Origin: Deinococcaceae bacterium
GTDB lineage: Bacteria > Deinococcota > Deinococci > Deinococcales > Trueperaceae
NCBI GenBank assembly: GCA_040256005.1
Contig: JBDZWC010000005.1
Location: 1-50,250, forward strand
DNA length: 50,250 bases
Reading direction: 5' to 3'
The translations under genes were made by a program, and so were the position numbers. The notes below the pieces were generated by a model. It worked only from the letters and a program-made list of their open reading frames with translations. It made no database searches and was not told where the DNA came from. This document shows positions 15,758-47,819 of this stretch, piece after piece; the first letter of the stretch is position 1, and each line of letters begins with the position of its first letter.

Positions 15758-16539
<782 letters not shown>

Positions 16540-27559: not shown

Positions 27560-28434
27560 GTGATCACACCCTGCGCCCTCAGGTCGCGAACCACGTTTTC
27601 GTTGAGGGCGCCGCCGGCAGCGACCGAGAGCCACCTGCCTTCCACCGACCACACCGCCGAGCGCACGGCCTCGCTCCACTCCGACACTGCCGATCGGTAC
27701 GCCCGCCAGGTATGGCGGTCCGCGCGGCGATCGATTACGGCGCCGCTCTCGGCATCTATGAGCCTGACCCAGCCTGTGGGCCCCACCTCCGTCCCTGACT
27801 CGGCCGCGCCGAGTACCTGGACGGCCACCACCTCCTGCTCCCTCACCCGCCAAGCCCGCAGCGCTTCCGCGAAGCCCTCCACCAGCCAGTCGCTGATGAC
27901 GACGAGCACGCCCGGAGCGGCCAGCGCCTCCAACGAACGGGCCGCTAGCTGGTTCATGGGTACTTGGGCACCGCCTGGCCGCACGTCGCCGAGGCGATCC
28001 AACTCCCGCCACAGCTGGCGGTCACGACTGACGGTTCCACCCCATTCGACACGGTCATGCTTGGTGACACCGAAGCGGACCTGGTCAGAGCCGTTGAGCG
28101 CCACCTCACCGAAAACGGCGGCCAGCTGGACGGCGCGGCTCCACAGGGTCGGGTCGGCGGCCATCGAACCGCTGCCATCCAGGAGCACGCTCACGCGCAG
28201 GCGCTGCTCCACGTGATACTGCTTGACCACCGCTCGACCGTGCCGAGCGTAGACGTGTCTGTCGAGGTGCCTTAGGTCGTCTCCCGGCTCGTAGTCGCGG
28301 TACTCGGCGAACTCGATCCCAGCACCAACGGACCTCGACCGGCGTTCGCCGACGCCGACGTTGGCCGGCGCCGTCGATATCAGCCTGGCACCGCTCAGCA
28401 GCCTGCGCACTTCGCCAGACAGCCGGCCCCTCAT
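27556..28434 (-). CDS. DUF58 domain protein (MoxR-associated, MxaS-like)
   Basis: GIEFAEYRDYEPGDDLRHLD, LLDGSGSM, VVISDW. Confidence 0.9.
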   Translation of the reverse strand: MRGRLSGEVRRLLSGARLISTAPANVGVGERRSRSVGAGIEFAEYRDYEPGDDLRHLDRHVYARHGRAVVKQYHVEQRLRVSVLLDGSGSMAADPTLWSRAVQLAAVFGEVALNGSDQVRFGVTKHDRVEWGGTVSRDRQLWRELDRLGDVRPGGAQVPMNQLAARSLEALAAPGVLVVISDWLVEGFAEALRAWRVREQEVVAVQVLGAAESGTEVGPTGWVRLIDAESGAVIDRRADRHTWRAYRSAVSEWSEAVRSAVWSVEGRWLSVAAGGALNENVVRDLRAQGVIT

Positions 28435-29462
28435 CTGCTCCGGGCTGCCACCGCTTCGAACAGTTCCTCGATCAGGTCGTCGACCTCGATCCCGGCCGCC
28501 TCGCCCTCGAAGTTGACCTGGATGCGGTGGCGAAGGGCCGGCGCGGCGATCGCCCTCACGTCCTCGAACGACACGTTGAAGCGGCCGTCCATGAGGGCCC
28601 GCGCCTTGGCGGCCAGGACCAGAGCCTGCGCTCCGCGGGGGGACACCCCGTAGCGCACGTACCGCTTCACCCGCTCGGACGCCTCGAGCAACTCTGGCTG
28701 TGTCGCCCTCACGTAGGTCGCCACGACGGACCTGACCTCACTGGAGATCGGCACGTCCCGCGTCCAATGCTGCAAAGCGAGGACGTCCTCCGGCCCCATC
28801 GCGGCCTCGGGAACCTGCACCTCCACGCCCGTCGTAGCGTCGACGATCTCCTGAATGACTGCGTGGGACGGGAAACCCAACGTCACCTTGAAGAAGAACC
28901 TGTCGATCTGGGCTTCGGGAAGGACGTAGGTACCCTCCATCTCGATGGGGTTCTGCGTGGCCAGCACGAAGAACGGCCTGGGCAGCTCGTACTCGGTGCC
29001 CATGACCGTGACGGTGCCTTCCTGCATCGCCTCCAGCAGGGATGACTGCGTCTTGGGCGTGGCACGGTTGATCTCGTCTGCCAACACCATCTGGGCGAAC
29101 ACGGGTCCGGGTTGGAAGACCGTCGACATCCCCCTGCCGGCATCCCCGGGCGCCAGCGTGTATGTGCCCGTGATGTCGGCCGGCATCAGGTCTGGGGTGA
29201 ACTGGATCCGGTTGAGCTTCAGGTTGAGAACTGCCCCCAAAGTGCGGACGAGGAGCGTCTTGCCCAAGCCTGGAGGGCTCTCGATCAGGACGTGACCGCC
29301 GGCGAGCAGCGCTACGAACGCCTGGTCGATGACCTCGGGTTGACCGACGACGACCCGTCTTACCTCCTGACGAGCTGCCTCCAACCTTCGGAGCGTGTCC
29401 TCAAGCCTCGAGGCCTCATGCTCGGGACCGAGAGAGGGCGCCTGCATCAGCTCGTCTTCCAT
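28431..29462 (-). CDS. moxR: MoxR family AAA+ ATPase
   Basis: GHVLIESPPGLGKT, RIQFTPDLMPADITG, LADEINRATPKTQSSLLEAMQE, ATQNPIEMEGTY; start ATG 29462 after GAGGTG. Confidence 0.93.
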   Translation of the reverse strand: MEDELMQAPSLGPEHEASRLEDTLRRLEAARQEVRRVVVGQPEVIDQAFVALLAGGHVLIESPPGLGKTLLVRTLGAVLNLKLNRIQFTPDLMPADITGTYTLAPGDAGRGMSTVFQPGPVFAQMVLADEINRATPKTQSSLLEAMQEGTVTVMGTEYELPRPFFVLATQNPIEMEGTYVLPEAQIDRFFFKVTLGFPSHAVIQEIVDATTGVEVQVPEAAMGPEDVLALQHWTRDVPISSEVRSVVATYVRATQPELLEASERVKRYVRYGVSPRGAQALVLAAKARALMDGRFNVSFEDVRAIAAPALRHRIQVNFEGEAAGIEVDDLIEELFEAVAARSR

Positions 29463-29484
29463 CTCACCTCGCGGGTAGGGCCGC

Positions 29485-30987
29485 TCACGGCGCCCCGTCG
29501 CCAGAACTCGAGTCGGGCGTGAAGTAGCGGCCGACCACATCGCCGTGCTCGGCGCCCACGCCCCGCGCCACGATGGCTGCCTCGCGAGAACGCACGAAGT
29601 CGGGCGCCAAGACCGGGGCTTCATCGTCGCTGGGCCGCTCTTCGGCTTGCGGTACCATCTCGATCTCTACGCGGCGCCCCTCCGTCGACTCGTTACGAGG
29701 CAGCAGGGACTCGGCTACGGCGGCAGCCTGAACGGCAGCCACCGGGTCGAACATCTCGGGCAGGGCGGCCGCGCCGGCGCCGGCCGCGTCCCCGGCGCCT
29801 TCGGTCGAGCGCTGTGCGGCGCCCGCCGGGTCTCCGGCGCCCTCGGCGCGAACCAGCGGGCCCGCCGGAGCCGCCGCGTTGGGGTCTGCCTGCGCTCGAC
29901 CCACGCCGCCGTAGAAAGAGTCGTCGATCGTCTGCCCATCGGCCGCCGGGCCGGTGGGCCGCAGACTCGCGCCACCGCCATCCTCGAGCTCGTCGACCAA
30001 GCTGCGAAGTGCCATGTAGAGAGAGGCGCTGTCGTCGGGGGTCGCGGTCTCCACGGCCGCCTCAGCATCTTCGGTCTGCGCCGTCTTCAACTGGCCGTTC
30101 GACGCGTTGTCTGCGCCCGCGAGTGGCGAGCCCGAGGCAGCCGTCGCGGGCACCTGCGCCAAGGCGTGCTCTACCGCTGACGCCAGGCCGCCGCCGGACC
30201 CCGAGACCGCCGTGCCCAGATGCGCCAGGAGGTCTCGCACGGCCCTGTCAGCCCCTGCTCTGGTCAGGTCCCCGGAGGTGGCCTCGGTGGCCAGCTCCGC
30301 GAACGAGGCTGCGATGGCACGCAGGTACTGATCGCCGGACTGCTCGGCTGAGAGGTCGAGCAGCCGGGCGACGTCTTCGAGGGTCGCTACTTGGTCCTCG
30401 GTCAGCGGCGCTTCACCGTTTCCGGCCGCAACGGCGGCGGTCGAAGCTGTTGGTCTCCCCGGGACAGGGACGAAGACCGCGACGGCGGCCAGCGCCAGGC
30501 CGGTCACGGCCGCCGAACGCAGAACCCCCAGCCGATTGTCGCCTGAACTCGTGTCGAGGCTCTCCGCCCTGGTCTCGGCGTCCGAGACCAGCATCCGCGC
30601 TACGACGGTGTGCGCGCCGCCGGCTTTAATGACCTCCCAGGCCGTTGACAGCGCCTGCATGTGCCGCTGCCTGTGGTCCGCCCTACGGGCGAGCTCGAGT
30701 AACGACGGCGCTCTGATCCCATGCCAGGCAGCCACGACCAAGAACGCGCCCAGGAACGCCGTAAGGGCTGCCTGGCCCGCCCTGCCCGATACGGATGGCG
30801 ACGCGAACACCGGACCAGTCTCACCGGCCAACCATGACCAAAGCCAAACCACAACGACCGCGAAGGAAGCAGCCGTCACGGCGACCGTCAGGGTCCGTCG
30901 GGCGGCGGAGTTCCACCAGGCGCGACGTGCCCGCCTCAGCGCTCGGTGAAGGTTGCTCTGTGGCAGCGCTCGGTACTGCGCCAGCAT
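29485..30987 (-). CDS. Hypothetical membrane protein of the MoxR operon
   Basis: Three hydrophobic segments, Ala/Gly-rich linker and C-terminal VVGRYF, a layout common in MoxR/VWA clusters. Confidence 0.65.
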   Translation of the reverse strand: MLAQYRALPQSNLHRALRRARRAWWNSAARRTLTVAVTAASFAVVVVWLWSWLAGETGPVFASPSVSGRAGQAALTAFLGAFLVVAAWHGIRAPSLLELARRADHRQRHMQALSTAWEVIKAGGAHTVVARMLVSDAETRAESLDTSSGDNRLGVLRSAAVTGLALAAVAVFVPVPGRPTASTAAVAAGNGEAPLTEDQVATLEDVARLLDLSAEQSGDQYLRAIAASFAELATEATSGDLTRAGADRAVRDLLAHLGTAVSGSGGGLASAVEHALAQVPATAASGSPLAGADNASNGQLKTAQTEDAEAAVETATPDDSASLYMALRSLVDELEDGGGASLRPTGPAADGQTIDDSFYGGVGRAQADPNAAAPAGPLVRAEGAGDPAGAAQRSTEGAGDAAGAGAAALPEMFDPVAAVQAAAVAESLLPRNESTEGRRVEIEMVPQAEERPSDDEAPVLAPDFVRSREAAIVARGVGAEHGDVVGRYFTPDSSSGDGAP

Positions 30988-31118: not shown

Positions 31119-33113
31119 TCACTGGCACCCAGGCACCTCAGGCACGTCAACGGCGCCAACCAACTCCGCCACCCCCACCTGCTGCGAGAGGTTGCGGCCC
31201 CACGGCGCACCCGGCACGGGGCGCACCACGTATAGCGGCTGCTCTAGCTGCCGCGAGTCCGAGTCGAAGGCAAGCGGCCGCCCCTTGGCGAGCTCGTGCG
31301 GCCCACCGAGCAAGAACTCTTCCAGCGCACCCTGCTCCAGCCCTCCGGTCTCGGCGGCTGCCTGTCCGACCAGCGTCACGGCCGCGTAAGCGGCCCAGGC
31401 GTGCGGGTCCATCGGACGGCCGAAGCGCGAGGTGAAGCGCTCGTTCAGGTCCGCCGCGGGACCTTCCGCCAGCGTCGTCTCCCACATCACTACGCGCTCG
31501 GGCACGCCGCTGGGGTTCAGGCGGGACGCGGCGGCGATGTAGTCGCGCGACTGGGTGGCCACGGCGGGGTACGGCACGATCGTCATCTCGGGTCCGAGGG
31601 CGGCCGCCTGCGCCAGGAAGGCTATCTGGTCGGGGGCTCCCAGCAGCACCAGGACGGCGTCGGCGCCTTCCTCGCGCGCGGCGTTCAGCTCGTCCGCGTA
31701 CACGGGGTCCGCCTCGGCCACCACGCTCTCGCCCACGACCTCGGCTCCCGTCTGCGCCACGATCGCGCCGAAGGTCTCGGCGACCCGCGACCAGCGATCG
31801 TCGTCCAGCCTGACCACGTGCCAGCGGGTGACGCCGGCGTCGCCGGCTCGAGCCGCGATCGCCGCGGCGTACAGGTCCGCGCTGGGGGCGACGTGGAACG
31901 TGGCTGTGCATCTGAGTGCCGGGTCATCGTCCCCGATGTTCAGGTTCGCTACGCCAGTCTCCGCCGCCACGTCGGCGAGAGCGGCCGCTTGGCCGTCTCC
32001 CAGGCCGCCTATGAGCACACGAGCGCCGTCTAGGTGAACGAGGCGCATGGCTGCCCTCTTGGCCGCACCGGCGCTGGGGGCGTTGGCGAAGACGACGTCG
32101 AGCGAGGAAGCGCCGTTCGACACCATCACGTCCTCGGCCAGCAGCGCGCCGGCGCGCGCGGCGTCGCCGACGACCTCGAACAGAGAACCTGCGACGGTCC
32201 GCGAGCCGGTCCGGTTGGGTCCCACGTAGCCAACGACGAGCCGTTCTACCGTCTGCTCCGGCGGCGCGGGCGCTGGGCCCGCGTCGACGAGCGGGACCGC
32301 GTACTCTTCGAGGACGGCTTGGATGTCATCCCAGCGCCGGACGATGGCCAGGCTCAGGCTGTCCCTGAGCGCCTCGTCGCCCTGTCGCACGCCGATCGTC
32401 ATGGGCAGCTGCAGGTTGGTGAACGGCGGCATGGGATCGATAGCGGGTTCGATGGGCACGACGACCAGCTCACCGGGGTGTTGAGCGGCGTAGTAGCCGG
32501 CCGACGGCCCCCACGAGACGCCCACGTCCACCTCGCCAGCGAGCACCGCCTCCACGAGCCGGGCCTGCGGGTCGTCCCGCGGCGCGTAGCGCGTGCTGCC
32601 GTACTCGGCCACGATGCTGTCGGCCAGCCCACGCGCCAGGAGCGAATCGTGCGGCGGCATGCCGGCGTTCTGGAGGCCGATCCGCAACTCTGACAGCACC
32701 GGATCGTCCAGCGACGTCACCTCTATGCCCGCGTCTGCTCGGTACACGAAGACGTAAGGGCTCGTGTAGTACGAGATGGTCGTGAGCAGCGGCTCAGCGC
32801 CGTCGGGCACGCCCATGACCACGTCGCAGTAGCCACCTCGCAGCCGCAGGTCGATCATGTCCTGCATCTGGGGGTACCAGTCGAAGCTCAGCGTCGCCCC
32901 CAGCTCCTCAGCCAATATCCCCGCGATGACGTTCTCGTAGCCCTCCGCGCTGCGGTCGCTCAGCGGCATGGCGTGTGGGTCGGCGCAGACGACTAGCTCC
33001 CAGGTCTGGCCCGCCTCCCCCTGCGCGCTGGAAGAAGCGGGGGCTAGAAGGGCGAGCACGAAGAAGGCGGCGGCGGCCTTGGCCGCCAGCCGCCTGGGAA
33101 GGACCCCGCTCAC
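31119..33113 (-). CDS. Fusion: XoxJ/MxaJ-like domain + LutA/PedA-type binding domain (copy B); start uncertain (GTG 33113 or ATG 33161)
   Basis: LVVCADPHAMPLS..GYENVIAGILAEELG..WYPQ..GYCDVVMGVP..YYTSPYVFVYR (classic MxaJ/XoxJ); C-half NLNIGDDDPALRCTATFHVAPS..SRQLEQPLY. Confidence 0.85.
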   Translation of the reverse strand: MSGVLPRRLAAKAAAAFFVLALLAPASSSAQGEAGQTWELVVCADPHAMPLSDRSAEGYENVIAGILAEELGATLSFDWYPQMQDMIDLRLRGGYCDVVMGVPDGAEPLLTTISYYTSPYVFVYRADAGIEVTSLDDPVLSELRIGLQNAGMPPHDSLLARGLADSIVAEYGSTRYAPRDDPQARLVEAVLAGEVDVGVSWGPSAGYYAAQHPGELVVVPIEPAIDPMPPFTNLQLPMTIGVRQGDEALRDSLSLAIVRRWDDIQAVLEEYAVPLVDAGPAPAPPEQTVERLVVGYVGPNRTGSRTVAGSLFEVVGDAARAGALLAEDVMVSNGASSLDVVFANAPSAGAAKRAAMRLVHLDGARVLIGGLGDGQAAALADVAAETGVANLNIGDDDPALRCTATFHVAPSADLYAAAIAARAGDAGVTRWHVVRLDDDRWSRVAETFGAIVAQTGAEVVGESVVAEADPVYADELNAAREEGADAVLVLLGAPDQIAFLAQAAALGPEMTIVPYPAVATQSRDYIAAASRLNPSGVPERVVMWETTLAEGPAADLNERFTSRFGRPMDPHAWAAYAAVTLVGQAAAETGGLEQGALEEFLLGGPHELAKGRPLAFDSDSRQLEQPLYVVRPVPGAPWGRNLSQQVGVAELVGAVDVPEVPGCQ

Positions 33114-33135
33114 CGGGGCCGATGCCTCGTGGCCG

Positions 33136-35157
33136 TCAGTATCCGTCGCTACCTCCGTCATCACCGGCGGCCCCACCGCCGGCATCATCGCCCGCACCGC
33201 CCGCGTCGTCACCGGCAGCACCGGCGTCGTCACCGGCTTCACCACCGGCTGCGCCACCGGCCGCCCCACCGCCGTCCTCGGCTTCACCACCGGCTCCGCC
33301 GTCGTCCTCGGCGCCCTCGGCGCCGGCGGGAGTCGCCGTCTGATCCGGCGTTACCCCGGCCACGTCATCGGGCAACGTGAAGACGTAGAGCGTCGAACCG
33401 GCGCGACGGTAGCGGTCTTCTTCGTCCGGTTCGGCGTCGACCTCGACACCCAACCTGCCCGGGCCGCTCGAGGAGATGACGGCGACGTACTGCTTCCCGT
33501 CGGGCCCCAGGTACGTCATAGGTGAGTTGCTGAAGTCGGCCCCCGCCATGAACTGCCACAGGACCTCGCCCGTGGTCGCGTCTATCGCCCTGAACTCGCC
33601 CAGCTGACCGCCTTGGAACACCAGGTTGCCAGCCGTCGTGAACACGGGCTTGTTGTCCGAGCCCATCGCCTCGATGCCCCACGCCTGTTCGCCCGTCACC
33701 GGGTCGATGCCGACCAGGCGGTTGCCCCAGTCGCCGTTGCCGTCCGGGCCCAGGTAGCTCTCGACCGTCTCCCTCAACCGGTATGACTCGCCCGGGACGT
33801 ACTCGCCCGCGAAAGCCCGCCAGTCACCGCAGCGGTTGCGTTCGCTGAAGTAGACGAGGCCGGTATCAGGGTTGTAAGCCTGGTTCTCCCAGTTCGTGGC
33901 CGCGATCAGCGGGCACAACCCTTCCGTGATCACGTCGGTGTAGACCTCGCGCTCCGGGTCCATGATCGGACGACCCGTCTCCATGTCGAAGCCAGTGGCC
34001 CAGGTGACGGGCGAGTGCATCCACGGCTCCTCGAGGAGCTCGCCCGTCTGGCGGTCGAACACGTAGAAGAAGCCGTTGCGCGCCGCTTTGATGAGCGCAG
34101 GCACCGTCTCTCCGTCGATCTCGAGGTCGACGAGGATGTTCGGTCCCGGCTCGTCGAGGTCCCACGGGTCCTGCGGTGTGAGGGTGTACGCCCACATCAG
34201 CTCGCCCGTGGTGGCGTCGCGCGCCAGCAGCGAGGCGCAGTACTTGTTCGGGTACTCGAAGTAACCGGGTGCCGTGGCAGGGTCGCGCCGGTAATCAGGG
34301 TTCCCCGGCGAGCAGTTGCCCGTGGAGTAGTAGAACCAGTCCAGCTCCGGGTCGTAGCTGAACCAACCCCAGACGCTGCCGCCGCCGATCTCCCACGAGT
34401 CGCGCCACCACGTCGAGACGCCTGGCTCCTCGACCTTGTCGTCCTCGTAGAACGGCGCGAACGAGTCGGTGATGCCCATCTCCTCGTTCGGGCCGGTGTT
34501 GTACATCTTCCAGACCTCGTCGCCCGTCTTGAGGTCGTAGGCGGCGACCCAACCTCGGACGCTGTACTCGCCGCCGGCGATGCCCGTGATGAGGTGGTCG
34601 TGCACGATCAGCGGAGCCAAAGTCGTGGTCTCGCCTATCGAGAGGTCCGCGATCTGTTTCTGCCAGACGATCTCGCCGGTCTCGGCGTCGACGCCGAACA
34701 GCTGACCGTCGAGCGAGTTGAAGTACAGCATGCCGTCTGCGTAGGAAACGCCGCGGGTCTGGCCGCCGCAGCAAGCCACGGCCAGCGCCTGCTCGAGCTC
34801 CGGCATGTCGACCGCCAGGGCCCACTTGACCACTCCGGGCTCGTTCAGGTCGATCGCGTAGAGAACGCTGGGCTTGGGCGTGACCAGGTACATCGTGTCG
34901 CCCACCACTAAGGGCGCGCCCTCGTGCGAGTCCAGCACGCCGGTCTGGAACGTCCAAGCGACCTGTAGCTGGTCGACGTTCTCGGTGTTGATCTGGTCGA
35001 GCTCGCTGTAGTTCAGAGCCGCATAGCTGCCGTTGGGCATGACCCACTGCCCGGGGTCCTCCTGTAACTGCAGCAACTCGTCGTTCGCTAGGGCCATGCC
35101 GCCCACCGCGAGACACGCGGCGGCCGTCAGTGCCGTGATCGTCCTGGTCGCTCTCAT
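33136..35157 (-). CDS. PQQ-dependent methanol/ethanol-family dehydrogenase 3, putatively lanthanide-dependent
   Basis: Signal peptide; HEGAPLVV, vicinal ACCG, GGEYSVRG (Glu), STGN (Asn), DPWDLD (Asp-x-Asp), ARNGFFY; RBS GGAGG before ATG 35157. Confidence 0.9.
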   Translation of the reverse strand: MRATRTITALTAAACLAVGGMALANDELLQLQEDPGQWVMPNGSYAALNYSELDQINTENVDQLQVAWTFQTGVLDSHEGAPLVVGDTMYLVTPKPSVLYAIDLNEPGVVKWALAVDMPELEQALAVACCGGQTRGVSYADGMLYFNSLDGQLFGVDAETGEIVWQKQIADLSIGETTTLAPLIVHDHLITGIAGGEYSVRGWVAAYDLKTGDEVWKMYNTGPNEEMGITDSFAPFYEDDKVEEPGVSTWWRDSWEIGGGSVWGWFSYDPELDWFYYSTGNCSPGNPDYRRDPATAPGYFEYPNKYCASLLARDATTGELMWAYTLTPQDPWDLDEPGPNILVDLEIDGETVPALIKAARNGFFYVFDRQTGELLEEPWMHSPVTWATGFDMETGRPIMDPEREVYTDVITEGLCPLIAATNWENQAYNPDTGLVYFSERNRCGDWRAFAGEYVPGESYRLRETVESYLGPDGNGDWGNRLVGIDPVTGEQAWGIEAMGSDNKPVFTTAGNLVFQGGQLGEFRAIDATTGEVLWQFMAGADFSNSPMTYLGPDGKQYVAVISSSGPGRLGVEVDAEPDEEDRYRRAGSTLYVFTLPDDVAGVTPDQTATPAGAEGAEDDGGAGGEAEDGGGAAGGAAGGEAGDDAGAAGDDAGGAGDDAGGGAAGDDGGSDGY
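33139..33330 (-). repeat. Low-complexity acidic Gly/Ala repeats (AGDDAG, AEDDGG) at the dehydrogenase 3 C-terminus
   Basis: GAEDDGGAGGEAEDGGGAAGGAAGGEAGDDAGAAGDDAGGAGDDAGGGAAGDDGGSDGY. Confidence 0.85.
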
Positions 35158-35257
35158 CTTCCCTCCTACCTGCTTCCGCTGGGCCCGGCGCGCTCCCCTG
35201 CTCCCGCGGCGAAACCGTCTCGAACCTGGTCGAGCGGCGGGGAACGGCGGCTGGTCC

Positions 35258-36193
35258 TCACCGCCGCTCGGCCACCTGCTCCGGGGAGACTGGGCCGAAC
35301 GAGTTACCCCACGAGTTGCGGATGAACGTGGCGACCGCGGCGATCTGCTGGTCGTCGAGCTGCCCACCGAAGGCCGGCATGCCGTGATCCGGACGCCCAC
35401 CCAGGATCGTCGTGATGACGCCGTCGGTGCGCTCGAGGAAACGGTTGCCCGCGAGGCTGGGGCCCACCAGGCCCTGACCCTGGTTGCCGTGACATGGGGC
35501 GCAGGTGCTGCTGAAGATGGACTGACCTTGGTCCATCAGGTCCTGCGGCACCTCCCCCTGTCCTCCGGCCGCCCCGCCCTCCTGGGCCTCGTCCTGCTGG
35601 CCGCCCGCGGGTTGCTCGCCCGCGCCTTCACCGGCGCCTTGCTCGCCTTCACCTTGCTCGCCGGCGCCGTCAGCCTCGGCGGCGTCGCCCTCGTCACCTT
35701 CCGCCTGCTCGCCGCCCTCTTGTTCGGCCTCGGGCTCGTCCGGGCTCTCCGTGGCGGAGGCCATCTCGACGATCGCGTTGCCGTCGGGCGACATGAGGTG
35801 GAACACGTCGCCGAGCGCCTGCCCGCGGATGTCGCCTTGCTCCTCGTCGCGCTCGTTGTAGTAGAGCGGCCAACCGTTGTAGGTCGCCTGGATCGAGCCG
35901 TCGGGCCGCTCGTAGGTGCCGGCGAAGTTGGCGTTCACGCCCTCCGCGACCGTCACGTCGCCCTCGACCGTGTACGGCGGCCAGTTCTCCATGCACTTCT
36001 CGGAGGTGCAGGCGCTCTCTCCGCCTTCGTCCATCGCGTACACGTAGAGGCTCATGCCTTGGGAGTCGGCCAGGTACTGGCCCCAATCCGGGTCCTCCCC
36101 GACGGTAAGGACCGGTGCCGCCACCTCCTGGGCCAGCGCCAGGAACAGCAGAGCCGCCACCACGAGCGTGACGGTCGTCCTGATTCTGGGCAT
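35258..36193 (-). CDS. Secreted COG4315 domain + class I cytochrome c fusion (copy B)
   Basis: Signal peptide; GMSLYVYAMD..SACTSEKCMENWPP, TYNGWPLYY; long E/G/Q linker; CAPCH and GMPAF. Confidence 0.85.
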   Translation of the reverse strand: MPRIRTTVTLVVAALLFLALAQEVAAPVLTVGEDPDWGQYLADSQGMSLYVYAMDEGGESACTSEKCMENWPPYTVEGDVTVAEGVNANFAGTYERPDGSIQATYNGWPLYYNERDEEQGDIRGQALGDVFHLMSPDGNAIVEMASATESPDEPEAEQEGGEQAEGDEGDAAEADGAGEQGEGEQGAGEGAGEQPAGGQQDEAQEGGAAGGQGEVPQDLMDQGQSIFSSTCAPCHGNQGQGLVGPSLAGNRFLERTDGVITTILGGRPDHGMPAFGGQLDDQQIAAVATFIRNSWGNSFGPVSPEQVAERR

Positions 36194-36454: not shown

Positions 36455-37372
36455 TCAGCGGGCGGCCGAGGTCATACGACGCATCGCCCACGCGGCGACG
36501 ACGGCCGCCACTGGCGCCGCACCGAACGTCACCGCCAGGTCGGCCGCCATGGGCAGCTGCTGGAAGCGCAGCAACACGTAACGCAGCAGGTCGAGCTGGT
36601 AGCTCACGGGGTTCACATAGACGAGCGCCTGGATCCAGCCCGGCAACTGCACGACCCAGCCACCTCCGATGGCGAAGATGCCGAGGCGCCTGAGCTCCTC
36701 ACGCAGGTGCTCGGGGATCTCCAGGAAACCCACGCCGCCGATCACGCCTCGCAGGGGGAAGATCGACCCGGACAGGAAGTACAGCGGCTGGATGACACCG
36801 TTCGAGATGCTGCCGAAGCCCTCGAACGTCTTGAGGCGCGTGGCGATGATCACGCCGAGCGCCGTCATGAACAGCCCCAGGAAGAACATGACGACCCAGG
36901 CGCCGAGGACGGACACCACGCTCAGCCGGACACCGATGAGCGGAGTGAACAGCAGCGGGATCGTGCCCTGAGCCACCGAGATCGTCGCCCCGCCGAGCAG
37001 CTTGCCTAGCGAGACGGAGAAGATGGGCGCCGGCGAGACGACGACCTCGCGCAGGATCCCAACCTCGCGGTCCCACACCAGGGCGATCGCGCACTGCAAG
37101 GCGGCGAAGAGGACGTTGAGGACGATCACGCCGGGCAGGATGTACTGCGCGTAGCTGTAGCCTTCGATCTCGCGCAGGGCAGCGCCCAGACCGAAGCCCA
37201 GGATCACGAGCCACAGCACGGTGCGGGAGAGGCCGCCGAACATCTGCGACCGGTCACGCCAGTAGCGCAACATCTCCCGGCGCCACATGACCCACACGAC
37301 CGCGGGGGCGAAGCCCGCCCACGAGCGTGGCGCGGCGGCCCTGACGCCGGGGCTGGAGGGGACCGTGGTCAA
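36455..37372 (-). CDS. ABC-2 type permease (PedC/LutF-like)
   Basis: Six TMs; YILPGVI, WDREVGILRE, FLSGSIFPL, VNPVSY; TTG start overlaps the ATPase stop. Confidence 0.85.
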   Translation of the reverse strand: MTTVPSSPGVRAAAPRSWAGFAPAVVWVMWRREMLRYWRDRSQMFGGLSRTVLWLVILGFGLGAALREIEGYSYAQYILPGVIVLNVLFAALQCAIALVWDREVGILREVVVSPAPIFSVSLGKLLGGATISVAQGTIPLLFTPLIGVRLSVVSVLGAWVVMFFLGLFMTALGVIIATRLKTFEGFGSISNGVIQPLYFLSGSIFPLRGVIGGVGFLEIPEHLREELRRLGIFAIGGGWVVQLPGWIQALVYVNPVSYQLDLLRYVLLRFQQLPMAADLAVTFGAAPVAAVVAAWAMRRMTSAAR

Positions 37373-38229
37373 CGCGTGTGCTCCCCTCCACGCCGGGCGA
37401 AGCTCACCATCTTGTCCCGCGCGGTGGCTGCGTCGTCACGGAGCTGCTTGCCCGTCAGGGCTATGAACACGTCCTCCAGGTCGCCGTCTTCCGCCGGGGC
37501 ATGCCTGGCCACGAGTTCGGCGGGCGGGCCGATCTCGACCAGTCTGCCTGCGTCTATGATGCCGACCCGATCGCAGGCCTCCGCCTCGGGGAGGTTGTGC
37601 GTCGTCATCAGCACCGTCATCCCCTCGCGCCTGAGGGCGTCGATCCGCTCCCACAGGTGACGGCGTCCTTGCGGGTCGAGGCCCAGCGTGGGCTCGTCGA
37701 GGAAGAGGATGCGGGGAGCGTGCATGAGCGCCCGCGCCAGCTCCAGGCGCCGCTTCATGCCGCCGGAGAAGCCCCTGACACGGCGCCCACCTACGTCTGC
37801 CAGCGAGGCCCACTCCAGGGCATGAGCCACAGCGGTCCGCACCTGGCCTCGGGGCACCCCGTAGAGCACGGCGTGTATCTCGAGGTTCTCCGTCGCCGTG
37901 AGCCGCTCGTCGAGCGCGGGCTCCTGGAACACCATGCCGAGGAGCCTGCGCACCGCCTGCGGCTCGGAGACGACGTCGTGGCCCAGCACCAAGGCGCGGC
38001 CGGCGGTGGGCCGAAGCAAGGTCGTGAGCATGTGGATCGTGGTCGTCTTGCCGGCCCCGTTCGGGCCCAGCAGCGCGAAGAACTCGCCGCGATGCACGGT
38101 CAGCGAGAGGTCCTCTACCGCGGTCACGTCACCGAAACGCCGCGTGAGGCCCTCCGTCACGATCGCGGGGGGCCCGCCGGCGACCTGTCGGTCGTTCAGC
38201 GGACCCCCCTGGGCGGCATCCGGGCTCAT
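37369..38229 (-). CDS. ABC-2 ATP-binding protein (PedB/LutE-like)
   Basis: GPNGAGKTT, FSGGMKRRLELARAL, LDEPTLGLD, TTH. Confidence 0.92.
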   Translation of the reverse strand: MSPDAAQGGPLNDRQVAGGPPAIVTEGLTRRFGDVTAVEDLSLTVHRGEFFALLGPNGAGKTTTIHMLTTLLRPTAGRALVLGHDVVSEPQAVRRLLGMVFQEPALDERLTATENLEIHAVLYGVPRGQVRTAVAHALEWASLADVGGRRVRGFSGGMKRRLELARALMHAPRILFLDEPTLGLDPQGRRHLWERIDALRREGMTVLMTTHNLPEAEACDRVGIIDAGRLVEIGPPAELVARHAPAEDGDLEDVFIALTGKQLRDDAATARDKMVSFARRGGEHTR

Positions 38230-38254
38230 CAGCCAGACGTTACCTTAGGGGCGC

Positions 38255-39358
38255 TCAGCCACCCAACGCCTCGTGAGCCTCCTGCAGCGCTTCGAGCAGC
38301 TCGCGGCAGGCCGCCGCGGGATCTTCCACGGGGACGAACTCCTCCTCGTCCTCGTCTTCGTCCTCTTCTTCTTCCTCCTCGACGCCCTCGAGCTCGGGCT
38401 CCAGGCCGGTCAGCGCCACGATCTGCTCGCTGGCCTCCTCGTGGACCTCGGGCGCCATGAAGCTCAGGAAGCTGGCCAGGTCGGCGCTGAAGTAGAGGTA
38501 ACCGACGGCGATCACACCCTCGACGGCCAGGTCGTCGTCGCCCGCGTCGTAGGCCTCGCAGTAGCCGGCCAGCTGATCAGGCAACTGGGCGGAGAGGGCG
38601 AAGAGGTCACGACCGGGGAACAGCTCGGCGTCCACGATCGCCTCTAGCAGTCCGATCACGCGCTGCACGGGCGCCTCGGCCTCCTCCGGGTTGCCTACGA
38701 TGGCGTTCTCGATGGTGGCCTCGGGGTAGAGGGTGCCGAGGAACTCCCACATCTCCTCGACGTCTGCGCGGTGCTGTTCGTCAGCGGCGGGTGCCACCAC
38801 CGCATCCCAGATGTCCACCACGCGCGCCAGGGACACGTAGCCCATCGTGTACGCGCCCAGCTCGCCTTCGGTGGCCTCCTCGTAGCCTTCGCCCACGCCG
38901 CCCTCGCCCAGCGAGAGCTCCACGATGAGCGCGGCCGCGAACGCGGGGTCGGAACGCACGTCGGCTGGCACCACGAGGTCGTAAGCCTGCTGGAGGAGCT
39001 CGCGAGCCTCCGCCACTGCTTCACCGGAGACCTCACCGTCCTCGGCGGCCTCCTCGACCTCCTCGACGGCCTCCTCCAACTCCTCCGCCAAGTCGGCGTC
39101 GGCGCGGGCCACGGAGCCCATGAACCGGCGCAGGTCGGCGTCGAAGCCCTCGATCACCTCGAGGTAGTCGTCGTCCAGGTCGTCACCCACGAGATCGAGG
39201 ACCTCGAGCCGCAGCAGCGCCAGCTCGAAACCGTACGCCTGGCTGACGGCGAGCGTGTCGTCGAAGAACGGCCGCTGCGAGTACTGCGCCGACGCGGTTC
39301 CGGCGAAGAAGAGCGTCGCCGCGATCAGAAGCGCCTTGAGGCCGCGCTCAGTCGTCAC
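38255..39358 (-). CDS. Hypothetical secreted, highly acidic helical protein
   Basis: Signal peptide (..GTASAQ); about 25% Asp+Glu by hand count; overlaps the upstream beta-propeller gene; high-GC3 coding pattern. Confidence 0.8.
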   Translation of the reverse strand: MTTERGLKALLIAATLFFAGTASAQYSQRPFFDDTLAVSQAYGFELALLRLEVLDLVGDDLDDDYLEVIEGFDADLRRFMGSVARADADLAEELEEAVEEVEEAAEDGEVSGEAVAEARELLQQAYDLVVPADVRSDPAFAAALIVELSLGEGGVGEGYEEATEGELGAYTMGYVSLARVVDIWDAVVAPAADEQHRADVEEMWEFLGTLYPEATIENAIVGNPEEAEAPVQRVIGLLEAIVDAELFPGRDLFALSAQLPDQLAGYCEAYDAGDDDLAVEGVIAVGYLYFSADLASFLSFMAPEVHEEASEQIVALTGLEPELEGVEEEEEEDEDEDEEEFVPVEDPAAACRELLEALQEAHEALGG

Positions 39359-40391
39359 CCGGGATCACCCCGATCTCTGCGGAGTGCGCGCCGCGACCCG
39401 CCTGGATGCTGCCGACCACGCACAGGCACTCGGTGTCGATGACGGAGATGCTGTCCGAGAGGCCGTTGGCCGTGTACACGGTGGTGCCGTCCGGGGTGAT
39501 GGCGATGCCCCACGGGCGCCTGCCCATCTGCTCCCGGATCGTCGCGACGATCTCGTTGTTCGTCGTGTCTATCACGTAGACGGCGCTGGTGCCGCCGCCG
39601 GCGACGTAGAGGCGGCTGGACGTAGGGTCCACCGCGATCTCAACCGGCCGTGAGTCCAGGCCCAGGTTGATCGTCTCGATGACCGAGTGGGTGCTCGTGT
39701 CGACGACAGAGATGGTGCCGCCGATCTCGGCGGACACGTACGCCCTGGTGCCGTCGTTCGAGAACTCGACGACGCGGGGGCGGTTGCCGACCAGGAAGTG
39801 CTTGACTACCTGGAGGCTCTCGCGGTCGACGACCGTGACGGTGTGCGTGGCCTCGGCCGTGATGTACACCCACTTGCCGTCGGGGCTGATGGCGACGCCC
39901 TCGGCCTCGACGCCCACGCGGAAGTTCGCGAGCTGCTCACCGGTCGCGACGTCGTAGCCGGCGCCCTGGGCGATCGCTTCCAGGGCCGCCCACACCTGGG
40001 TGCCGTCGGGGCTGACCGCGACGCGCTCCGGGTTGCCGCCCGCGCGGAACTCCCCGACGACCTCGTTGGTACGCACGTCGATGGCGACGATCTTGTCCTC
40101 CGGCGTCTCGATCTGCGGGTTGAAGTCGCTGATGGAGACGTAGATGATCGCGCCGTCGGGGCTCACGGCCATGCCGCGGGGCCGCACCTCGCCGGGCCGG
40201 CCGGAGATCGTGATCGTGTCGATGACCTCGTTCGTCGCGGTGTCCACGACGGTGATGTCGGCGCTGTACTCGTTGGCCACGTAGAGGCGATACGCGTCCG
40301 CCTCCTGAGCCACCGCCGTTCCGAAGGTCAGGGCCAGTGTCAGCGTCGCCAGTACGCCGAACGCTCGTTGCTTCACGGGCTGTGCTCTCAT
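39348..40391 (-). CDS. YVTN beta-propeller, PQQ-catabolism associated (LutB/PedA2-like)
   Basis: LYVANE, PRGMAVSPDG, VGVEAEGVAISPDGKW, YVSAEIGGTISVVD, RRPWGIAITPDG..YTANGLSDSISVID; ATG 40391 after GAGGAG. Confidence 0.85.
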   Translation of the reverse strand: MRAQPVKQRAFGVLATLTLALTFGTAVAQEADAYRLYVANEYSADITVVDTATNEVIDTITISGRPGEVRPRGMAVSPDGAIIYVSISDFNPQIETPEDKIVAIDVRTNEVVGEFRAGGNPERVAVSPDGTQVWAALEAIAQGAGYDVATGEQLANFRVGVEAEGVAISPDGKWVYITAEATHTVTVVDRESLQVVKHFLVGNRPRVVEFSNDGTRAYVSAEIGGTISVVDTSTHSVIETINLGLDSRPVEIAVDPTSSRLYVAGGGTSAVYVIDTTNNEIVATIREQMGRRPWGIAITPDGTTVYTANGLSDSISVIDTECLCVVGSIQAGRGAHSAEIGVIPGDD

Positions 40392-40447
40392 GCTCTCCTC
40401 TCGCCCGCCGGCCGTCCGCCGGCGGAACTCGACAGCTTCAGTTCCCT

Positions 40448-41743
40448 TCACCTGTCGCACCTGCTCGCCGCTGCCAGGTCACCGATCTGATCGAGGCGCT
40501 CGACCGGGTCCGTGCCGGGCATGTAGATCGCCGGCAGCTCCCCTACGAGCGTCGCGAGCATGAACGGGTCCTCCTCCGACGCGCTGATCTTGATCAGGTA
40601 GAGGGACTGTCTCAGTTGGCCGTCCCACGGACGGAAAGTGGTGCCGATGCCCTTCCACACGTCGAACACTGTGGTCGCGGAACCCAGGTAGCCCAGGACG
40701 GCCTCCGCGTCTGCGGAGCCGCCGAAGAAGGCGGCCTCGTAGCCCAGCTTCACCGCCTGGTACACGGCCCAGGCCGGCGTCTCCATGGGCCGGTCCTCGA
40801 ACCTGAGACGGTAGCGGGCGTTTAGTTCCCTGGCGCCGTAGGCGTCGAGGGTGGCTTCCCAGGCGCTGGCCCGATGGCCGGCACCCAGCGTGGGTGCCGC
40901 GTCCCGGGAGGCGTCGTAGAAGGTTCGTGTCTGGGCCTCGGGGTAAGGGAAGCCGGTGACGACGACGTCTAGACCGGCCTGCTCCATGGCAGCCAGGACC
41001 CTGATCTGCTCTTGGGCGGGCATGAGCAGAACGACCAGGCTGGCGCCGCTTCGACGGACCTGGTCTATCGCCACAGCGGGGTCCTCACCGACGTCCATAC
41101 CTACGTCGCCTGCGGTGCGAGCGCCGAAGTGCCGCTCCCGGAGGCCGCGCTGGATCCGCTGCAACTGGGCGGCGGACTCGGCGTCGTTGCCGTGGACGAA
41201 GAACCACTCGCGGTAGCCGGAACGCACGTACCAGCCTGCCAGCGAGTCGAGGTACATGGCGGCGCTGGGCGCGATGTGGAAGGTGGTCGCCTCGCACTGT
41301 TCCTGTCTCAGGACGTCGGCCGAGGACCCGATGTTCAGGTACGGGACGCCGGCCTCCGCTGACCAGGTCGCCAACGCGGACGCCTCCTCGAGGCTGAAGC
41401 CCCCCGCGACCACGAAAGCGCCCTCGTCCACGAGTTCGCGGGCAGCGGCGACGACCGCCTCGGCCCCAGCGGCCTCGCGCGTCAGGACGGCGAAGTCGAT
41501 GCCGAGCATCTCGGCGTTGAACGCGAACTCCTCGTCGGCCATGACCGCGCCGCTGGCTGCCGAGGTAGCGACCGCGTCCGCGATGGGATCGCCCGTCGTC
41601 GGGGGCAGCACCACGCCCACGCGCAGCGGTTCGGTGGGTAGGCCCTGGGCCGTGCCGAGCGGCACTATCGACAGGGCGAGGACGGCACACAGGCCGACGA
41701 CGATACGAAGTGGATGCCGGCGGCTGGGGTGTCGTCCGTTCAT
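40448..41743 (-). CDS. ABC substrate-binding protein, PQQ-dehydrogenase system (LutA/PedA1-like)
   Basis: Signal peptide; PYLNIGSSADVLRQEQC..TFHIAPSAAMYLDSLA..WFFVHG; TFRPWDGQLRQ; RLDQIGD. Confidence 0.82.
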   Translation of the reverse strand: MNGRHPSRRHPLRIVVGLCAVLALSIVPLGTAQGLPTEPLRVGVVLPPTTGDPIADAVATSAASGAVMADEEFAFNAEMLGIDFAVLTREAAGAEAVVAAARELVDEGAFVVAGGFSLEEASALATWSAEAGVPYLNIGSSADVLRQEQCEATTFHIAPSAAMYLDSLAGWYVRSGYREWFFVHGNDAESAAQLQRIQRGLRERHFGARTAGDVGMDVGEDPAVAIDQVRRSGASLVVLLMPAQEQIRVLAAMEQAGLDVVVTGFPYPEAQTRTFYDASRDAAPTLGAGHRASAWEATLDAYGARELNARYRLRFEDRPMETPAWAVYQAVKLGYEAAFFGGSADAEAVLGYLGSATTVFDVWKGIGTTFRPWDGQLRQSLYLIKISASEEDPFMLATLVGELPAIYMPGTDPVERLDQIGDLAAASRCDR

Positions 41744-41960: not shown

Positions 41961-42629
41961 ATGCGGATCCTCTTGTTGGAAGACAACGACGACATCGGGT
42001 TGGCCCTGGCCGAGGCTCTTAGGCACGAGCGCTACGACGTCACCTGGGTGAAGACCGACGCGGGCGCGTCGCGCGCGGCCGCCGAGAGGCACTACGACCT
42101 CGCCGTGCTGGACGTCATGATCGGTCCCGACGACGATGCTGGCTTCCGGCTCGCCAGCCAGCTGCGCGAGGCCGGCTTCGCCGGAAGCGTGCTCTTCGTC
42201 AGCGCCAGGGATGCCGAGGCCGACAGGGTCCGTGGCCTGGACCTGGGCGGCGATGACTACCTCGTCAAGCCGTTCGGGCTGGCGGAGTTCCTGGCCCGCG
42301 TCCGCGCCCTGGTGCGGCGCCACGCCCAGACGCGGACCACGTTGCTGGACCGCAAACCACTGCAGGTCGACCTCGCGAACCGGCGGATCTCATGGGAGGA
42401 CAGGGAGGTCCAGCTCTCCGCCAGGGAGTTCGAGATGTTGGAGCTCTTCGCCCTCTACCCCGAGAGGGTCTTCACCGCCGACGAGCTGCAGGAGCGCCTC
42501 TTCCCGGAGGCCGGCTCGGGCCCCAGGGTCGTGCGTGTCTACGTCAGCCAACTCAGGCACAAGGTCGCGGGTGAGGTCATCGCGACCGTACCGGGCGGCT
42601 ACCGGTTGGGTCCGGGCCAGACGACATGA
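41961..42629 (+). CDS. OmpR-family response regulator
   Basis: ILLLEDND, VLDVM, GGDDYLVKPF, winged helix VRVYVSQLRHK..GGYRL. Confidence 0.93.
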   Translation: MRILLLEDNDDIGLALAEALRHERYDVTWVKTDAGASRAAAERHYDLAVLDVMIGPDDDAGFRLASQLREAGFAGSVLFVSARDAEADRVRGLDLGGDDYLVKPFGLAEFLARVRALVRRHAQTRTTLLDRKPLQVDLANRRISWEDREVQLSAREFEMLELFALYPERVFTADELQERLFPEAGSGPRVVRVYVSQLRHKVAGEVIATVPGGYRLGPGQTT

Positions 42630-43621
42630 GCCTCAGGCGGTCCGTCTTCCTGGCGGTGATGACGGCCGTGCTGGCCGCCACGTTGCTCGAGGGCGTCCTG
42701 GACGTCGGCCTGGAGGCGCTGGGTGACGCCTTCGGCAGCGGCGAGGGCTCGCCCGCCCGTCTCCTGCTGGACCTGGTGGACGTGCCGCTGTTCGCGCTCC
42801 TCGGTCTGGCGCTCGCGTACTGGCTGTCACGGCGCATCGCCCGCCCCCTGAGCAGGCTCACGAGCGCCAACCGGCAGCTGGCGACCGCCGGGCGCGTGGA
42901 GACGCTCAACGTTCCGCCGGGCGGCGATGAGCTGTCCGAGCTGGTCTCGAGCTTCAACGCCATGGCGCGGGCCGTCGACGAGCACGTGGAGCGCGAACGC
43001 GCCTTCACCCGCTACGCCTCGCACGAGCTGAGGACCCCGCTTTCCGCCATGCGCCTGCAACTGGAGGCCGTGCGGTTGGGCCACAAGCCCGCCGAGGCGA
43101 CGTTGCCGGTCCTGGAGAAGAACGTCAAGCGCATGGAGGAGGTGCTGGGCGCGCTCCTGGCGCTGGCCAGGTCCGACGATTCGGCGCCCGAGCGCGCGCC
43201 GCTCATGCCGCTGCTCCAGGAGTCGCTGGCCGCCATGCCGGAGGAGCAGCGTGGTCGCGTGGAACTGCTGGGCTCTCTGGGCAGCACCTACGTCGCACAG
43301 CCCCGCCTGGTGCAGCAGGCCGTGGAGAACCTCGTCGAGAACGCTCTGCTGCACGGCGGCGGCACCGCCAGGGTGGAGGTCGGGGAAACGGCGGGGCGCC
43401 TGTGGGTGCGAGTGGCTGACGAGGGCCCCGGCGTGCCCATCGAATCTCTACCGCGTCTCACGGAGCCGTTCTTCCGCGTCGACCCGACCACCAACGGCAT
43501 GGGCCTCGGCCTGGCGTTCGTCTCGCATGTCGCGCGGGCGCTGGGTGGCGAGCTCGTCCTCAACAGCGAGGGGGGCGGCATGGCCGCCACCCTCACACTG
43601 CCCGAAGCGACCCCGGCCTAA
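42626..43621 (+). CDS. HAMP sensor histidine kinase
   Basis: Two TMs, HAMP (RIARPL..DELSELVSSFNAM), ASHELRTPL, NLVENAL, DEGPG, GMGLGL. Confidence 0.92.
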   Translation: MSLRRSVFLAVMTAVLAATLLEGVLDVGLEALGDAFGSGEGSPARLLLDLVDVPLFALLGLALAYWLSRRIARPLSRLTSANRQLATAGRVETLNVPPGGDELSELVSSFNAMARAVDEHVERERAFTRYASHELRTPLSAMRLQLEAVRLGHKPAEATLPVLEKNVKRMEEVLGALLALARSDDSAPERAPLMPLLQESLAAMPEEQRGRVELLGSLGSTYVAQPRLVQQAVENLVENALLHGGGTARVEVGETAGRLWVRVADEGPGVPIESLPRLTEPFFRVDPTTNGMGLGLAFVSHVARALGGELVLNSEGGGMAATLTLPEATPA

Positions 43622-47802: not shown

Positions 47803-47819
47803 CGGCACCTCCTACAGCC

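Follow-up and report, generated by a model that had tools for sequence, protein, structure and literature searches.

A secreted acidic protein family as a fixed component of a Ped/Lut-like transporter clade with operons beside lanthanide-type dehydrogenase genes

Introduction

The closest described relatives of the locus studied here are the PedA1A2BC transporter of Pseudomonas putida and the LutABEF transporter of Methylorubrum, both reported, in the accessible text of two studies, to be required for lanthanide-dependent growth (PMC6839425, PMC7391723). As far as that text goes, P. putida has four ped transporter genes and none between pedA2 and pedB (PMC6839425), and the Methylorubrum interval between lutB and lutE carries lutC and lutD/lanD (PMC7391723, PMC11551332). 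The available part of the LanD report describes LutD (LanD, landiscernin; META1p1781) as a 6.8 kDa periplasmic protein that binds Ln3+ through three Glu, calls it only the third structurally characterised class of biological lanthanide site, and notes that lanD overlaps the ATPase gene in M. extorquens (PMC11551332). Here we describe a 50,250-nucleotide stretch of DNA (the window: contig JBDZWC010000005.1, positions 1 to 50,250, of assembly GCA_040256005.1) from a Deinococcaceae bacterium placed by GTDB in the Trueperaceae. It encodes the same four transporter parts and, between the genes for the YVTN beta-propeller protein and the ATP-binding cassette (ABC) ATPase, a 367-residue secreted, very acidic protein, hereafter the acidic protein.

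A sequence-only reading of this DNA (the first-pass annotation) had proposed that the acidic protein is a new lanthanide chaperone standing in the LanD position of a lut-like operon. The position is indeed the interval that holds lutC and lutD/lanD in Methylorubrum. A carboxylate-rich periplasmic accessory protein in this slot was already known from LanD; what is new is a non-homologous occupant that marks a new transporter clade. We find that one clade of Ped/Lut-like transporter operons, lying next to lanthanide-type dehydrogenase genes, has the acidic protein as a fixed component. With somewhat less than even confidence, we propose that it is a putative periplasmic handler of cations (Ln3+), working as the partner of an importer paralogous to Lut/Ped. 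To our knowledge, very few types of natural lanthanide-binding protein have been found, and we know of no role for the YVTN component of these transporters. Each new type of lanthanide-binding protein has been put to use in rare-earth separation chemistry.

The gene for the acidic protein is coupled to the YVTN gene

The first-pass annotation had placed the gene between the YVTN and ABC ATPase genes, and so we found it, on the minus strand: its GTG start overlaps the 3′ end of the YVTN gene (39348-40460) by 11 nucleotides, and 25 nucleotides separate its stop codon (38255-38257) from the ATPase gene (37369-38229). The overlap suggests that the YVTN protein and the acidic protein are translationally coupled. 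The position of the start codon is matched by the N-termini of homologues, and a plus-strand reading of the same interval was ruled out because its frame is broken by a stop. Scanning positions 36000-42100 for promoters and terminators returned no promoter-like site and one terminator-like site, on the opposite strand, with no excess over shuffled sequences.

This adjacency is conserved. Across an evenly drawn sample of 301 Deinococcota genomes, the family of the acidic protein was found in 41 and the YVTN gene (threshold E ≤ 1e-40) in 33, and in all 33 of the latter the two genes were direct neighbours on one contig. In G219, a 34th genome, the family gene stands beside a YVTN gene interrupted by an assembly gap. 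This genome is one of eight in which only the family was scored; two more (G270 and G285) have the gene at a contig end, and the remaining five hold weak matches. We also assembled 21 related loci from named genomes, comprising Trueperaceae and Deinococcaceae metagenome-assembled genomes (MAGs), Meiothermus, Bauldia/Kaistiaceae, a Salinisphaerales MAG and Maliponia aquimaris. In 15 of these loci the YVTN and ATPase genes flank the homologue, and four more are cut by contig ends yet consistent on the visible side; the two with a different arrangement (L007 and L015) are second copies in Bauldia. Synteny is thereby kept over three phylum- or class-level groups. The match in the Salinisphaerales MAG (G302:C5:2430-3533, locus L020) contains one in-frame TGA, which may be a sequencing error, a pseudogene mutation or a recoded codon.

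The operon belongs to a transporter clade separate from canonical lut/ped operons

In architecture the window resembles PedA1A2BC and LutABEF, with the same four parts in the same order and PQQ (pyrroloquinoline quinone) alcohol dehydrogenase genes nearby. For the binding protein, YVTN protein, ATPase and permease, respectively, TIGR03863, TIGR03866, TIGR03864 and TIGR03861 are the best or near-best specific matches, yet all four fall below the curated cut-offs. The shortfall holds beyond this genome, as none of the YVTN proteins in the 301 sampled Deinococcota genomes reached the TIGR03866 cut-off.

We compared these loci with Alphaproteobacteria, the class of one related locus (L011), again using an even sample of 301 genomes. 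A YVTN match was present in 43 of them and scored above the TIGR03866 cut-off in 40. In the 30 best canonical YVTN loci the YVTN protein is about 28-37% identical to that of the window and the ATPase gene is usually next to it, and hmmsearch of every open reading frame (ORF) of at least 45 residues found no match to the acidic protein family at E ≤ 10 in any of the 30. A broad family profile gave strong matches in only two genomes of the sample, G301 and G400, with a weak match in G486 (E 1.1e-4). In both G301 and G400, which are of Kaistiaceae type, the family match sits beside a second YVTN copy that scores below the cut-off, and each genome carries a canonical YVTN copy as well.

When 17 family-linked and 30 canonical YVTN proteins were placed in one maximum-likelihood tree, the two sets were split by a branch supported at 100/100; the groups were defined by the neighbouring gene and the canonical set came from one class, so the tree speaks to separation and not to origin. 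On this evidence the operon falls in a separate paralogous clade, which we call type-2, and is not an ordinary lut/ped operon. The first-pass term 'lut-like operon' is therefore apt for the architecture, the gene order and the nearby PQQ dehydrogenases, but not for the lineage, which is a paralogous one with all four core proteins below their cut-offs. Type-2 YVTN sequences from Kaistiaceae nest among those of Deinococcota in the tree, suggesting that the type-2 system was transferred between phyla.

What stands between the YVTN and ATPase genes differs from system to system, as in a variable accessory slot: nothing in P. putida and in the majority of the 30 canonical loci, LutC and LanD in Methylorubrum, the acidic protein family in type-2 operons, and elsewhere a different ORF. 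That ORF encodes a conserved secreted product of about 150 residues (…GPEFFRAIWIDEIV…) at L026 (961-1479, minus strand) and L027 (2451-2903, plus strand); it is unrelated to the acidic protein family and has no NCBIfam match.

Lanthanide-type dehydrogenases accompany the operon

An extra Asp in the motif W-D-x-D is the accepted marker of lanthanide-type PQQ alcohol dehydrogenases (PQQ-ADHs). The genome encodes five PQQ-ADH homologues, three in the window (17478-19355, 21517-23253 and 33136-35400) and two on contig C109 (24384-26003 and 31898-33508), and W-D-x-D is present in four of the five. It is also present in all six assessable neighbouring ADHs of the related loci, three further ADHs being fragments. 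Homologues of the acidic protein are, in their great majority, in operon position and near W-D-x-D dehydrogenases, a co-occurrence with DxD-type enzymes that the first-pass annotation had put forward as a check. The genome holds a single Ped/Lut-like YVTN match, that of the window. A search for pqqC (TIGR02111), whose control itself matched in no genome, gave no match in this 96.8%-complete genome, and the source organism may be a PQQ scavenger.

These data bear on the nature of the ligand. The type-2 system might be no lanthanide importer at all, and the acidic protein might bind Ca2+, another hard cation, a lanthanophore complex or PQQ. The coexistence of type-2 and canonical systems in G301 and G400 hints at a different job, the four core proteins all score below their curated cut-offs, and the genome lacks a pqqC match (with the control caveat just given) despite its five PQQ-ADH homologues. 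Set against this, the sampled Deinococcota have type-2 YVTN proteins only, yet the genome has W-D-x-D dehydrogenases, and an anionic protein would be a poor binder of anionic PQQ. We consider a ligand other than Ln3+ quite unlikely.

The proximity of dehydrogenase genes also raises the idea that the acidic protein works outside the transporter, as a helper that inserts cofactor or metal during PQQ dehydrogenase maturation, like XoxJ/MxaJ or MxaACKL. The operon does run on into genes for a cytochrome c, a PQQ-ADH, a XoxJ-like fusion and MoxR, DUF58 and VWA proteins, and in L006 and L014 the gene for a 500-residue protein and the MoxR gene come directly after the ABC permease gene. The gene for the acidic protein, however, is placed inside the transporter set, between YVTN and ATPase, and not beside the dehydrogenase gene, and only 7 of the 21 related loci show a PQQ-ADH gene in the 8 kb that were fetched. 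A maturation role is on balance very unlikely, and we continue with the proposal of a cation-handling partner of the transporter.

The acidity of the protein is exceptional in its genome

Asp and Glu (D/E) make up 93 of the 367 residues (25.3%), alongside 13 Arg and a single Lys, K8, which lies within the predicted signal peptide. The N-terminus, VTTERGLKALLIAATLFFAGTASA before QY, reads as a Sec signal peptide, leaving a mature protein of about 343 residues. Residues 327-340 form a 14-residue acidic run, EEEEEEDEDEDEEE (DNA 38339-38380), and there are two Cys, C267 in the context GYCEAY and C351 in the context AAACREL. The motif scan found no EF-hand loop, which has the pattern D-x-[DN]-x-[DN]-G, and no EF-hand Pfam match was obtained for the protein. 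The first-pass annotation had given the length, the D/E count, the two Cys, the acidic run and the missing EF-hand correctly, for a gene that lies on the minus strand. Its remark that Lys is absent after the signal peptide is also true but does not distinguish the protein: Lys is scarce throughout the genome (median 1.5%) and the neighbours of the acidic protein hold 0-12 Lys, so that Lys poverty is genomic background.

To place this composition we used 2263 likely coding ORFs of at least 150 residues from the same genome, with G+C content of at least 0.80 at third codon positions (GC3) and below 0.60 at second positions (GC2). The acidic protein ranks first of the 2263 in D/E fraction, where the median is 12.2% and the 99th percentile 19.4%, and its 14-residue run is the longest in the set, the next being 6. 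An origin of the acidity in salt adaptation, or as a low-complexity accident with no specific link to the neighbouring genes, would fit with the isoelectric points (pI) of 4.0-4.7 of the secreted neighbours, which are likewise acidic, and with the variability of the polyacidic run in the family. The proteome, however, shows no strong acidity of the salt-in kind, its median net charge being -0.018 per residue, and the acidic protein is its top outlier; moreover, the gene keeps its synteny across three phylum- or class-level groups and its product is modelled at a mean confidence of 91. We rejected salt adaptation on the genome-wide composition, and regard the alternative as a whole as extremely improbable.

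Conserved carboxylates and a Cys pair define a small family without a name

Pfam and NCBIfam hold no match for the acidic protein, and 22 family members searched against Pfam at E ≤ 10 gave scattered chance matches only, in line with the first-pass description of a secreted, very acidic protein of no known family. A word-index search found 45 clusters of similar length; an exhaustive profile search over 1.84 billion representatives returned 165 with E ≤ 0.001, of which 130 had E ≤ 1e-10 and 89 had E ≤ 1e-30. This is a genuine family, though a small one. Three longer matches (P0175, P0182 and P0188), inspected for fusions, carry no informative Pfam domain. Literature on LanD/lut, PedA1A2BC, Truepera and lanthanide or YVTN transporters did not describe the family, which, for a family without a name, is weak evidence of novelty.

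Median D/E content in the family is 17.7% and median pI 4.2. An acidic run of at least eight residues occurs in only 23 of 152 full-length members, so the polyacidic run, although present in the window's protein as the first-pass annotation had said, is a clade-specific ornament and not a family feature. What the family does conserve lies elsewhere. Among 52 diverse members, G154 is invariant and E228, E239, R250, C267 and C351 are near-invariant or invariant, and ten positions are acidic in 83-98%, grouped as two clusters. Cluster 1 (E152, E157, E160, E161 and E166; motif GEGGVGEGYEEA; DNA 38861-38905) is acidic in 83-96% of the 52 members and in 17 of 17 members from operon context. Cluster 2 comprises E225, E226, E228, E239 and D251 (motif NPEEAEAP; DNA 38606-38689). 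Each cluster contains a conserved E-x-x-E pair, E157-x-x-E160 and E225-x-x-E228, respectively. Exactly two Cys are present in 113 of 152 full-length members, and we infer that a Cys267-Cys351 disulfide ties the last helix to the third helical bundle across the acidic loop.

Distant, non-acidic relatives without YVTN or ABC genes nearby occur in one Deinococcota genus (L074, 5012-5947, minus strand, in G050; weak matches in G006, G030, G062 and G077). The L074 relative lies beside secDF with no transporter genes around it. In this one case GEGGVAEGY and both Cys are kept, but the EEA and PEEAE carboxylates are gone and the protein lacks the acidity. tblastn of the window's proteins against the fetched stretch of G077 (L073) found nothing at E ≤ 1e-5.

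The protein is predicted to form three helical bundles with generic fold matches

An AlphaFold2 model built from a 22-sequence alignment is all-helical, with a mean predicted local distance difference test score (pLDDT) of 91.4 and a pTM of 0.88; residues 136-367 folded alone reached a pLDDT of 89.9. The protein is predicted to consist of three successive four-helix bundles (residues ~27-135, 136-246 and 247-367). The sole poorly defined part is the loop at residues 318-346, which varies in length and is missing from distant members.

Foldseek returned nothing at E ≤ 0.001 with the whole model or with residues 136-367 alone, and the structure prediction and search suggested by the first-pass annotation gave a confident model, generic bundles and weak imelysin entries. 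Superposed with VIA-align, each bundle fits generic four-helix bundles (Z 10-12, root-mean-square deviation (rmsd) 2.2-3.8, 91-106 residues aligned, 3-15% identity), among them the TorS sensor (3o1h_A; Z 11.0-11.1, rmsd 2.2-2.8, 91-102 aligned), the NarX and NarQ sensors, PsbQ and talin rods. These share no motif or function with the acidic protein, and such Z scores are expected of any up-down bundle. The ESM Atlas gave unnamed clusters only, with a top score of 0.90 that lies within the range of chance matches. A search of all PDB sequences with the family profile (A1) at E ≤ 10 gave three unrelated low-complexity or helical matches and no solved relative. The top fold-search matches listed include no ferritin entry, in searches that made no comparison aimed at ferritin. 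An internal triplication was also considered and dropped, since hhalign between the bundles gave probabilities of 0.8%, 32.6% and 0.4%.

LanD is the nearest known parallel. Like LanD, the acidic protein is secreted, has conserved carboxylates, and is encoded directly upstream of the ATPase gene in a binding protein-YVTN-ATPase-permease set. The differences are in size, 6.8 kDa against about 343 mature residues in three predicted bundles, and in the host transporter, which belongs to another clade. The LanD site (Arg69, Glu70, Glu73, Glu75 and Glu78; R-E-x-x-E-x-E-x-x-E) is absent from the acidic protein and from all 195 family proteins, and no LanD chain was matched by the A1 profile among all PDB sequences at E ≤ 10. 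Size, motif and the PDB search together rule out a LanD homologue, and the first-pass claim of non-homology holds on both the motif and the profile search. An EF-hand or lanmodulin-type identity was ruled out in the same way by the missing loop and the missing Pfam match.

A second parallel is with imelysin-like EfeM, EfeO and Algp7 (Peptidase_M75), which are secreted, all-helical, two-bundle metal-binding partners of metal transporters. Imelysin entries appear low in the fold lists (7q1g_A, Z 7.6, rmsd 8.4, 196 aligned; 7wgu_A, Z 7.0; 5y4c, Z 6.9), over a range of Z 6.0-7.6, rmsd 8.4-11.8 and 188-201 residues with Foldseek E 0.45-2.4; Z scores of this size are common for helical bundles. PF09375 matched none of the 22 family members at E ≤ 10 and nothing in the genome, its control having matched in four known genomes. 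We rejected imelysin homology on profile comparison: hhalign of A1 or A2 with 20 imelysin ORFs gave probabilities of 0.2-3.3%, against 97.8% between imelysin subgroups 1 and 2. The periplasmic domain of PmrB senses Fe3+ and Al3+ through ExxE motifs, and the paired E-x-x-E of the acidic protein, likewise in a periplasmic helical region, recalls it as an analogy of motif.

A possible role as a cation-handling partner docked on the YVTN propeller

Strict adjacency to the YVTN gene makes its product a candidate partner. When the mature forms of the acidic protein and the YVTN protein were co-folded from one alignment per protein, the ipSAE was 0.46 (runs 0.46, 0.43 and 0.51), where the best of three controls gave 0.00; the partner was modelled at a pLDDT of 84 or more, and 73% or more of the contacts were common to the runs. 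The tool's verdict was 'weak support'. Of 157 solved complexes 116 reach its mark, as do 2 of 215 mismatched pairs, and scores at or below 0.60 account for only 18 of the 157 and for both passing mismatches. Because such a pass coincides with strict gene coupling, we take the odds of a contact to be modestly raised and no more.

We propose the following mechanism. Once in the periplasm, the secreted three-bundle protein would use its many carboxylates to catch hard cations, probably Ln3+. The two Glu clusters (E152/E157/E160/E161/E166 and E225/E226/E228/E239/D251) may form one or more hard-cation sites, and the polyacidic loop of the window's clade would serve as a low-affinity antenna that raises local cation capture. 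Bridging the flexible acidic loop, the putative Cys267-Cys351 disulfide would hold the C-terminal helix in place. The YVTN propeller would be the docking site of the protein, and the metal would then be handed on to the binding protein and permease, a direction that we adopt from what has been proposed for LanD in the canonical system.

The same contact could serve a different end. The acidic protein could be a structural adaptor or gate that bridges the YVTN protein, the binding protein and the ABC-2 permease, its charge serving contacts or solubility and metal playing no part. Strict YVTN adjacency with an overlapping reading frame, the co-fold score well above its best control, and the resemblance of the bundles to protein-binding bundles (TorS sensor, PsbQ, talin rods) are all consistent with such an adaptor, as is the functioning of canonical systems without this family, to judge from the accessible text on P. 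putida (PMC6839425). An adaptor, however, leaves unexplained why conservation among the side chains is strongest at about ten carboxylates and why the protein ranks first in its genome in acidity, and the out-of-operon L074 relative has lost exactly those carboxylates. We therefore judge an adaptor without a metal role unlikely and favour, tentatively, the cation-handling partner.

Several points weigh against the cation-handling partner. Relative to the Ped/Lut systems that have been studied, the type-2 transporter is a paralogue and no orthologue, and its substrate may differ, because all four of its parts score below their cut-offs and two genomes carry both kinds. The co-fold pass is a weak one obtained with alignments of our own making, and the fold searches, returning only generic four-helix bundles, favour nothing specific. 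E228, E239 and R250 could be merely structural salt bridges, and a meeting of the two Glu clusters in one site would go further than sequence conservation reaches. PQQ-ADH genes are infrequent within the fetched flanks, as counted above, and the 5 of 41 Deinococcota family matches that are weak (E 1e-9 to 1e-20) all come from one genus and lie outside YVTN context. Finally, according to the available part of the M. extorquens study, strains that had lost lutD grew without a significant defect and those that had lost lutC with only a small one (PMC7391723), so that, by analogy, occupants of the YVTN-ATPase slot can be dispensable.

Taken to its full extent, our proposal would add the acidic protein to lanmodulin, landiscernin and lanpepsy as a fourth natural type of lanthanide binder. 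Stapled by its disulfide, the three-bundle protein would hold Ln3+ between two conserved Glu clusters and dock on the YVTN protein, and it would be the hallmark of a second rare-earth uptake pathway, paralogous to the first, that has moved between Deinococcota and Proteobacteria. This fuller version we hold to be doubtful. Should the protein bind Ln3+, it would provide a new scaffold, suggest a role for the YVTN protein as a docking platform, and extend lanthanide handling to the Deinococcota, where only type-2 systems were found in 301 genomes. Should it bind no metal, the family would still mark a separate, horizontally spread transporter clade whose substrate has to be asked afresh. Being unannotated, confidently folded in the model and small enough for expression, the family offers the lanthanide field a good and cheap experimental subject with a proposed function.

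Gene neighbourhood in the window

On the minus strand the genes follow in the order binding protein, YVTN, acidic protein, ATPase, permease, Lipoprotein_15-cytochrome c fusion, PQQ-ADH, XoxJ-like fusion, 500-residue protein, MoxR, DUF58 and BatA/VWA (Table 1). We read the last four, at 23204-30987, as a possible mxaRSACKL-like metal-insertion module. The divergent two-component pair is syntenic in relatives, with a response regulator gene, a histidine kinase gene or both beside the binding protein gene in nine loci (L002-L005, L008, L009, L012, L014 and L075); in L003 the response regulator alone is visible, at a contig end.

Table 1. Features of the locus, with positions in the window
Feature	Position	Strand	Basis or remark
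Unknown 500-residue gene, MoxR ATPase, DUF58, 1602-residue BatA/VWA/GATase1-like ORF	23204..30987	-	Domain matches
XoxJ/MoxJ-like (SBP_bac_3-type) domain fused to Peripla_BP_6	31119..33290	-	TIGR03871 212.8 bits (cut-off 212.15) and TIGR03863 63.8
PQQ alcohol dehydrogenase, W-D-L-D	33136..35400	-	TIGR03075 499.6 bits, above cut-off
Lipoprotein_15 and cytochrome c fusion gene	35258..36193	-	Domain matches
ABC-2 permease gene, PedC/LutF-like	36455..37372	-	TIGR03861 117.4 bits, cut-off 241.35
ABC ATPase gene, PedB/LutE-like, DrrA-like	37369..38229	-	TIGR03864 223.2 bits, cut-off 302.25
Acidic protein gene, 367-residue secreted product (P0001)	38255..39358	-	GTG start; stop codon 38255-38257
Predicted helical bundle 3, residues 247-367	38258..38620	-	AlphaFold2; acidic cluster 2 begins on first helix, just upstream of range
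Cys351, second conserved Cys	38306..38308	-	Conserved in A1/A2 alignments
Low-confidence acidic loop, residues 318-346, includes D/E run 327-340	38321..38407	-	pLDDT 50-55
Cys267	38558..38560	-	Invariant in alignment A1, at least 90% in A2; predicted partner Cys351
Predicted helical bundle 2, residues 136-246, bears acidic cluster 1	38621..38953	-	AlphaFold2 models
Predicted helical bundle 1, residues 27-135	38954..39280	-	AlphaFold2 model; generic match 6xz4_B Z 12.2, rmsd 2.9, 101 aligned
Predicted signal peptide, residues 1-24, predicted cleavage ASA/QY	39287..39358	-	Sequence reading; AQ(Y) nearly invariant across family
YVTN beta-propeller gene, PedA2/LutB-like, divergent clade	39348..40460	-	TIGR03866 223.8 bits, cut-off 287.3
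Periplasmic binding protein gene, PedA1/LutA-like	40448..41743	-	Peripla_BP_6; TIGR03863 140 bits, cut-off 413.6
OmpR-type response regulator and histidine kinase pair, divergent	41961..43621	+	Syntenic in relatives

Two fusion types recur in the window. The Lipoprotein_15 repeat joined to a cbb3-type cytochrome c is encoded at 16427-17509 (plus strand) and 35258-36193 (minus strand), each time upstream of a PQQ-ADH gene; the latter copy has a long acidic linker rich in Gly, Glu, Ala and Gln, a pI of 4.05 and 17.4% D/E. A second XoxJ/MoxJ-like and Peripla_BP_6 fusion lies at 19505-21508 (plus strand), and both such fusions adjoin a PQQ-ADH gene. The PQQ-ADH ORF at 33136-35400, as listed, starts 80 codons upstream of Met81 and overlaps the upstream gene; its real start is probably the Met at residue 81, near 35160, because a signal-peptide-like stretch (MRATRTITAL...) begins there. 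The protein ends in a low-complexity tail of about 65 residues rich in Gly, Ala, Asp and Glu. At the far end of the window, a 486-residue ORF (47799-49259, minus strand) with a pI of 12.0, 131 Arg, no Lys and no Pfam match is probably no gene but an ORF in the wrong frame of this high-GC DNA.

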